This document shows, in pieces, positions 19,630-19,953 of a stretch of 64,000 bases of DNA. The stretch's first letter is position 1, and the number at the start of each line of letters is the position of its first letter. Source of the stretch: Escherichia coli. GTDB taxonomy: Bacteria > Pseudomonadota > Gammaproteobacteria > Enterobacterales > Enterobacteriaceae. The notes under the pieces were generated by a model. That model was not told the DNA's origin. It did no database searches and saw only the letters and a list, made by a program, of their open reading frames with translations. The translations under genes and the position numbers were made by a program. The stretch lies in the NCBI RefSeq assembly GCF_030384885.1, contig NZ_CP128613.1. The stretch is one strand, 5' to 3'.

Positions 19630-19953
19630 AAACTGCTTTCAGTTGTTGCGTGTGGCTACGCTTTCCATTCGGTAATTCCCTTCCTGCTCCACAGCGAATT
19701 TTTGAACTTTTTCTTCACCCGTTGATCGTCTCTATTATTTCATTTTATCGGGTCTGTTATGGTCCTTTCTGATTGTTATTCATGGGCTAATTAGCCGTCT
19801 GGTTGGCGATGCCCATCTCGGTGATCCGCGTCGTGCACGACGCCTTGCATCACCAGCCTCTTCTCTAGCTCATCATGCAGGTCTTTCTAATTGTGAAATC
19901 ATCCCACGCTACTGCTAAGGTTGAAGGGGCGTTCCAGCCCCTTCAACCTTAGC

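Follow-up and report, generated by a model that had tools for sequence, protein, structure and literature searches.

Directly after the espY1 stop codon in Escherichia coli there stands a perfect inverted repeat, and the questions it raises are what made it and whether it does anything there. The sequence-only reading had offered three options: that it stabilises RNA, that a protein binds it, or that it is left over from an insertion junction. The last comes closest, in that the palindrome does mark a junction, but this is an internal one between an insertion sequence (IS) and the espY1 3' end and not the junction of an inserted islet with the chromosome. The palindrome is real, unique to the rluA-espY1 locus and old, and it adds a case to a known kind of event. 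Probably it is a DNA repair or replication scar left where an ISEc13-like IS was truncated and joined just past the espY1 stop codon. Positions below are those of the window, by which is meant the whole stretch of 64,000 nucleotides analysed, and the coordinates of the features are collected in Table 1.

The rluA-espY1 locus

The gene order is rapA, rluA, a transposase pseudogene, espY1, djlA and lptD, and the locus is 100% identical in E. coli strain 2013C-4282. The espY1 gene, intact in the window, encodes a pentapeptide-repeat effector of type III secretion; its K-12 counterpart is the yabP/yabQ pseudogene, a frameshifted espY1. The gene sits within an islet carried by about 2080 (2082) of 5426 complete E. 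coli genomes, the remainder (~3340) matching the flanks only. The two islet junctions, at 19548/19549 and 20994/20995, are the convergent rluA and djlA stop codons, and in islet-free genomes (empty sites L007 and L008) a REP-containing spacer of some 115-150 bp lies between those stop codons, which is exactly what the islet replaces. Presence of the islet is patchy, K-12 having it and BL21 not.

Table 1. Features of the rluA-djlA interval in window coordinates
Feature	Position	Strand	Sequence	Basis or content
rluA	18889-19548	+		
Islet, 1.45 kb	19549-20994			IS remnant, palindrome, espY1 and espY1 upstream region
ISEc13-like (IS4/Tn5 family) remnant, left end	19583-19935	+		Alignment to full-length copies
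rluA intrinsic terminator	19598-19627	+	AAATCCCCG/CGGGGATTT	9-bp stem and T-run; within the outermost 45 bp of the IS remnant (19583-19627)
Left arm	19914-19930		GCTAAGGTTGAAGGGGC	Final stretch of IS-derived sequence; codons ..(T)AQVEGA.. of the ISEc13 transposase
Loop	19931-19936		GTTCCA	19931-19935 IS-homologous (GTACC in the IS); homology ends at 19935
Right arm	19937-19953		GCCCCTTCAACCTTAGC	Exact reverse complement of 19914-19930; in no IS copy
espY1	19954-20700	-		ORF, RefSeq annotation, homologues named EspY1 with PF00805
djlA	20995-21810	-		

Anatomy of the palindrome

The repeat finder gives a palindrome at 19914-19953 with 17-nt arms that are 100% complementary and have 6 nt between them. 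A 13-bp inverted repeat with an 8-nt loop, described earlier at 19917-19950, is real and correctly placed but forms only the inner part of this larger structure. Nor does it lie 3 bp beyond the stop codon as then supposed, since the outermost paired base, 19953, touches the stop codon at 19954-19956 (TAA on the minus strand) with a gap of 0 nt. It is the longest perfect hairpin-type repeat of the window; the runner-up has 13 bp to its 17 bp. A chance origin is ruled out by the randomisations: the pattern had 0 matches in 100 dinucleotide-preserving shuffles, and the longest hairpin repeat in each Markov-1 randomisation measured 8-13 bp (n=30).

The runner-up itself, at 63964-63997, has 13-bp arms (ATATTGGCAGAAA and TTTCTGCCAATAT) about an 8-nt loop and stands at the window edge. 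A separate resemblance, between 19567-19581 and 19906-19920 (11 of 15 nt alike), was considered as a link by target-site duplication; it is within chance given the number of comparisons, and is rejected also because the second copy is IS-native sequence.

One arm is insertion sequence, the other a copy of it

The remnant that runs into the palindrome consists of a left terminal repeat (CTGCCTCTTGTACATAAAT at 19583), a leader and the degenerate start of the transposase reading frame, some 45 codons long (..LGDPRR..), and RefSeq labels it a frameshifted, incomplete 'transposase DNA-binding-containing protein'. Both a terminal inverted repeat of CTGTCTCTTATACACA type and a transposase N-terminus are present. 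On pEF03 the intact reference copy measures 1564 bp and has a 9-bp target duplication; the window holds neither a second IS end nor a complete element with such a duplication, nor any other IS-homologous segment. Identity over the 353 bp is 80-87% to full-length copies (L002, L006 and L021), being about 80% to the chromosomal ones (L002 and L006) and 87.0-87.4% to plasmid copies of E. fergusonii and Salmonella.

Where the homology ends is what matters for the palindrome. Alignments to six full-length or longer ISEc13-like copies (E. coli chromosome, E. fergusonii plasmid) all stop at 19935, as do additional E. fergusonii and Salmonella plasmid matches, which span query 1-359, that is window 19577-19935. 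IS homology runs on into the loop, as far as 19935, and this makes the left arm transposase coding sequence. In alignment with it the full-length copies read GCTCAGGTTGAAGGTGC, and at the right-arm position the intact copies read GCCTGATGCGTAACCCG (pEF03) or GCCTGATACGTAACCCG (chromosomal). Taken across the junction, intact copies have ACTGCTCAGGTTGAAGGTGCGTACC, then GCCTGAT(G/A) and CGTAACCCG, encoding ..STAQVEGAYRL.., and the window has ACTGCTAAGGTTGAAGGGGCGTTCC, then a single A, the right arm and TTA, the espY1 stop codon. The IS-native continuation (GCCTGATGCGTAAC on pEF03, GCCTGATACGTAAC in chromosomal copies) has in other words been exchanged for an A and the reverse complement of the left arm.

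Two bases of the left arm, A19917 and G19926, are private to this remnant, all other IS copies having C and T there, and both are complemented by the right arm. The right arm was therefore copied from this remnant and not from the consensus IS.

This bears on the idea that the palindrome is what is left of a second, inverted copy of the same IS, a long IS-IS palindrome having collapsed by deletions to 17 bp. The right arm is indeed inverted IS sequence, some genomes hold several ISEc13-like copies (an IS 48-mer is found at up to 31 places), and E. coli tends to delete long palindromes, which are unstable there. The collapse would, however, require two or more independent deletions ending 17 bp from each other, a longer right arm is seen in none of the ~2080 islet carriers, and the right arm matches the two private bases and not the IS consensus. 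A collapsed inverted pair therefore seems very unlikely.

A probable snap-back scar

Copying of the left arm at the truncation junction can be drawn as a short series of steps. During removal of the IS remainder a 3' end near 19936-19939 would have folded back on its own strand, with 3 nt of complementarity, GCC at 19937-19939 with GGC at 19928-19930, serving for priming. A polymerase would then have copied some 14-17 nt of that same strand, after which synthesis may have switched back or the end may have been ligated to the espY1 flank. The scar would have formed once, before the islet alleles diversified, and been inherited since. A simple GCC/GGC fold-back does not account for the extra A at 19936. 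Since no pre-event allele (a longer IS with no right arm) was found, all ~2080 islet-bearing genomes having the junction, the formation mechanism is read from its product.

In E. coli, template switching gives rise to perfect inverted repeats and to quasipalindrome mutations (PMC7202029), and the arrangement seen here is the one that such copying would leave, one arm being ancestral (homologous to all ISEc13 copies) and the other a reverse-complement copy absent from them. The closest relatives are the quasipalindrome strand-switch products of E. coli, known from the Ripley model and the reporters of the Lovett laboratory (PMC7202029, PMC5941160). Like these, the palindrome has perfectly complementary arms set apart by a short asymmetric spacer; one arm is original and the other a templated copy, and a few complementary bases were available for priming. 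The classic cases, in contrast, perfect an existing imperfect repeat inside a gene, whereas the scar at espY1 amounts to some 14-17 nt of new sequence at an IS truncation junction, and in the intact IS no prior quasipalindrome is visible.

The stem has no mismatch despite a divergence of about 13% between the remnant and its closest IS relatives. Either the event came later than the divergence, or complementarity of the arms has since been restored. If the divergence arose in place after the event, then some force kept the arms complementary, be it selection or repeated correction by template switching. It has been proposed that perfect inverted repeats are kept perfect over evolution by template switching, without a function (PMC5941160).

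A palindrome at a break within this IS family calls to mind a further source. IS4/Tn5-family transposases cut via a DNA hairpin, and such transposition hairpins, together with P-nucleotide-type palindromes, share with the present case the IS family and the position at a break. Theirs lie at the element terminus and are spacer-less, however, and the one at espY1 is about 353 bp inside the IS. Its 6-nt non-palindromic spacer and its position inside the IS rule out a transposase-hairpin or P-nucleotide origin.

If the snap-back scar is accepted, the locus is a clean natural example of a perfect palindrome that a single step produced where a rearrangement joined two sequences and that has persisted through the diversification of the species, with a templating arm that can still be identified because it is IS coding sequence. 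On its own the palindrome matters little. A further point against reading it as a scar and nothing else is that a hairpin could be useful where it starts right at the stop of a virulence effector gene.

The hairpin in RNA

A stable stem-loop in the transcript had been anticipated, and folding bears this out with -34.5 kcal/mol in the espY1 sense (minus strand; z = -6.8) and -35.1 kcal/mol on the plus strand (z = -8.5), the stem having 17 pairs, 10 of them G-C. The accompanying claim that neither strand has a U-run stands for the espY1-sense tail, AGUAGCGUGGGAUGA, which has no U-run and a T-tract score of 0.33 (the rluA terminator scoring 4.0 on the same scale); the terminator scan does not list this strand. 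It does not stand for the plus strand, whose tail, UUAUUCUGG, has 5 U in 8, an interrupted run that scores 2.8 and is terminator-like in the scan.

With no U-tract in espY1 mRNA the hairpin cannot act there as a classical intrinsic terminator. Beginning at the first base after UAA, it would at most pause polymerase or block 3'-to-5' exonucleases. On the plus strand the G+C-rich stem followed by UUAUUCU is like an intrinsic terminator, and this tail suggests weak termination of transcripts that enter from rluA or the IS remnant; unlike in the usual case the U-tract is interrupted, the 17-bp stem is unusually long and the structure points antisense to espY1. It is plausible, as a prediction, that the hairpin acts on espY1 mRNA by holding back exonucleases, by making polymerase pause or by weakly terminating antisense transcripts, and neither kind of RNA effect shows a sign of selection.

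These properties are what commend a different account of the palindrome, in which the hairpin is a selected RNA element that defines or protects the espY1 mRNA 3' end and/or stops antisense transcription from the rluA/IS side. It is very stable from the first base after the stop, it is terminator-like on the plus strand, and in lacking a U-run in the gene sense it resembles the protective stem-loops of Rho-terminated transcripts described by Dar and Sorek in 2018 (PMC6061677), which likewise stand just after the coding region. Those stem-loops are accompanied by a rut signature (PMC6061677), and here the likeness fails. The espY1-sense RNA downstream of the hairpin has 14% C and 35% G in its first 78 nt, and 14-26% C and 35-37% G over 128 nt, and because it is G-rich and C-poor there is no rut-like region. 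The stem is also much longer than usual in that class, and its origin in an IS fragment is evident.

The rluA terminator hairpin folds on the minus strand as well, and espY1 transcripts would more probably run some 300 nt on to it. That hairpin is native to ISEc13 and present in intact IS copies. Its tail is an uninterrupted T-run here as against TTTGTTATTTC or TTTGTGATG in ISEc13 copies, and in islet-free strains REP elements follow rluA in place of an IS-borne terminator. The rluA terminator lies upstream of the palindrome and already stops plus-strand read-through, and the scan detected no promoter-like site in the IS remnant, so there may be little plus-strand transcription for the hairpin to stop.

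Mapped 3' ends give weak evidence in the same direction. In the supplementary 3'-end tables of Adams et al. (PMC7815308) consulted here there is no yabP/yabQ entry and no coordinate beginning 5931 or 5932, and so no 3' end near ~59.32 kb of K-12; the evidence is weak because the locus may be silent in K-12. A literature search found no usable EHEC Term-seq data. No Rfam family was found at 19400-21100 at a permissive threshold, the two sub-threshold matches, to GcvB (22 bits, gathering 42) and mir-133 (19 bits, gathering 55.5), being chance ones.

For annotation there is a caution here, in that a strong stem-loop may stand beside a stop codon and be neither terminator nor regulatory element.

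Distribution, variation and constraint

With a 76-bp probe the site is found in 2079 genomes, once each and only at this locus, with partial coverage of the palindrome in 8 of them. A 48-bp palindrome probe finds it in 2071 of 5426 genomes, always between rluA and espY1 and at one locus per genome, the two places returned per genome being both strands of the same palindrome.

This distribution separates the palindrome from the REP/BIME elements, which are also palindromic units in the spacer between convergent genes and which in islet-free E. coli fill this same rluA-djlA spacer. Unlike them it is single-copy, without a REP consensus and of other origin; REP/BIME identity is ruled out by its one locus per genome, where many dispersed copies would be the rule.

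An operator for a dimeric DNA-binding protein regulating espY1 or neighbour genes, the second of the earlier options, is commended by dyad symmetry and by that only. Each genome has just one such site, placed where both flanking transcription units end and not where a promoter lies; one half is transposase coding sequence by accident, and a 17+6+17 layout is atypical of operators. The palindrome is almost certainly not a protein-binding site of this kind, and that option finds no support.

In favour of selection on the stem, 2014 of the 2071 palindrome 48-mers are identical to the window (the other 57 differ by one position), and among 12 diverse alleles the loop varied twice (T19933C, and an extra C) and the stem never. 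The substituted sites in these alleles are 0/34 in the stem against 26/365 in the IS-side flank, a difference which is not significant (P(0) ~0.08). Control 48-mers place the genome count in proportion. One at the espY1 3' end (19958-20005) is identical to the window in 515 genomes only, but one in the adjacent IS (19862-19909) is identical in 1947, and since this control is nearly as invariant as the palindrome there is no evidence of more constraint on the stem than on the dead IS alongside. Extra conservation of the stem is rejected on this count. The K-12 rluA-yabP junction, which had been put forward for comparison, carries the identical palindrome although its espY1 is a pseudogene, so that the hairpin is equally kept in K-12-type strains.

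Two strains have lost the perfect stem. In Z1323CEC0014 (L020, 2201-2640) a conversion tract from another ISEc13-like copy extends over ~19766-19917 and ends inside the left arm, and the resulting A19917C is uncompensated opposite T19950, leaving a C/T mismatch in the stem. Recombination treats the left arm, but not the right, as IS DNA. In ZF8-1 (L010) a 45-bp deletion between TCA repeats (~19898-19942) has taken out the left arm and the loop, which is typical of hairpin-stimulated slippage or palindrome-type instability. An uncompensated mismatch in one strain and a deleted arm in another both speak against selection on the stem.

All told, a selected RNA element seems unlikely as the reason for the palindrome. 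It is a different proposition that the scar acquired a role once made, a fragment of transposase coding sequence having been turned by one snap-back copying event into a functional RNA hairpin that sets the 3' end or stability of espY1 mRNA, or insulates it from antisense transcription; this is to be regarded as unlikely. Were the hairpin truly to affect espY1 mRNA, it would be a regulatory 3' element born from IS/transposon debris.

As an observation apart, the tract in Z1323CEC0014 indicates that a dead IS fragment of ~350 bp still recombines with live copies.

espY1 alleles and the djlA side of the islet

Tandem 15-bp units of GGTAGCACCGTCCAG, which encode DGAT-type pentapeptide repeats, occupy 20083-20130 of espY1, and a variable 3' region lies at 19992-20010. 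Across strains espY1 alleles differ in unit copy number and in 14-nt indels, and it is this variation that accounts for the 73-99% spread of identity among EspY1 alleles and for the yabP/yabQ split of K-12. Database names for the protein conflict, many entries being called 'UDP pyrophosphate phosphatase' and others 'T3SS effector EspY1' (P0001, P0008, P0010 and others); the former looks like a propagated mis-annotation.

In the protein search, relatives of EspY1 among the 120 matches listed are E. coli and Shigella alleles only. A scan of contigs of other species with EspY1 gave one locus (L012, JAIJJM010000692.1), which has the same palindrome. It is a 1.6-kb E. coli-like contig in a 'Collinsella sp.' MAG, its espY1 at 94% identity, and is probably bin contamination.

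At the far end of the islet, 20935-20994 in islet strains holds an imperfect hairpin, GTGGCCGCC-CTG-GCGGTCAC in the minus-strand reading, followed by TTCTTTG after djlA, which is likely a djlA terminator supplied by the islet. This same stretch has a 59-nt match on a plasmid (H70).
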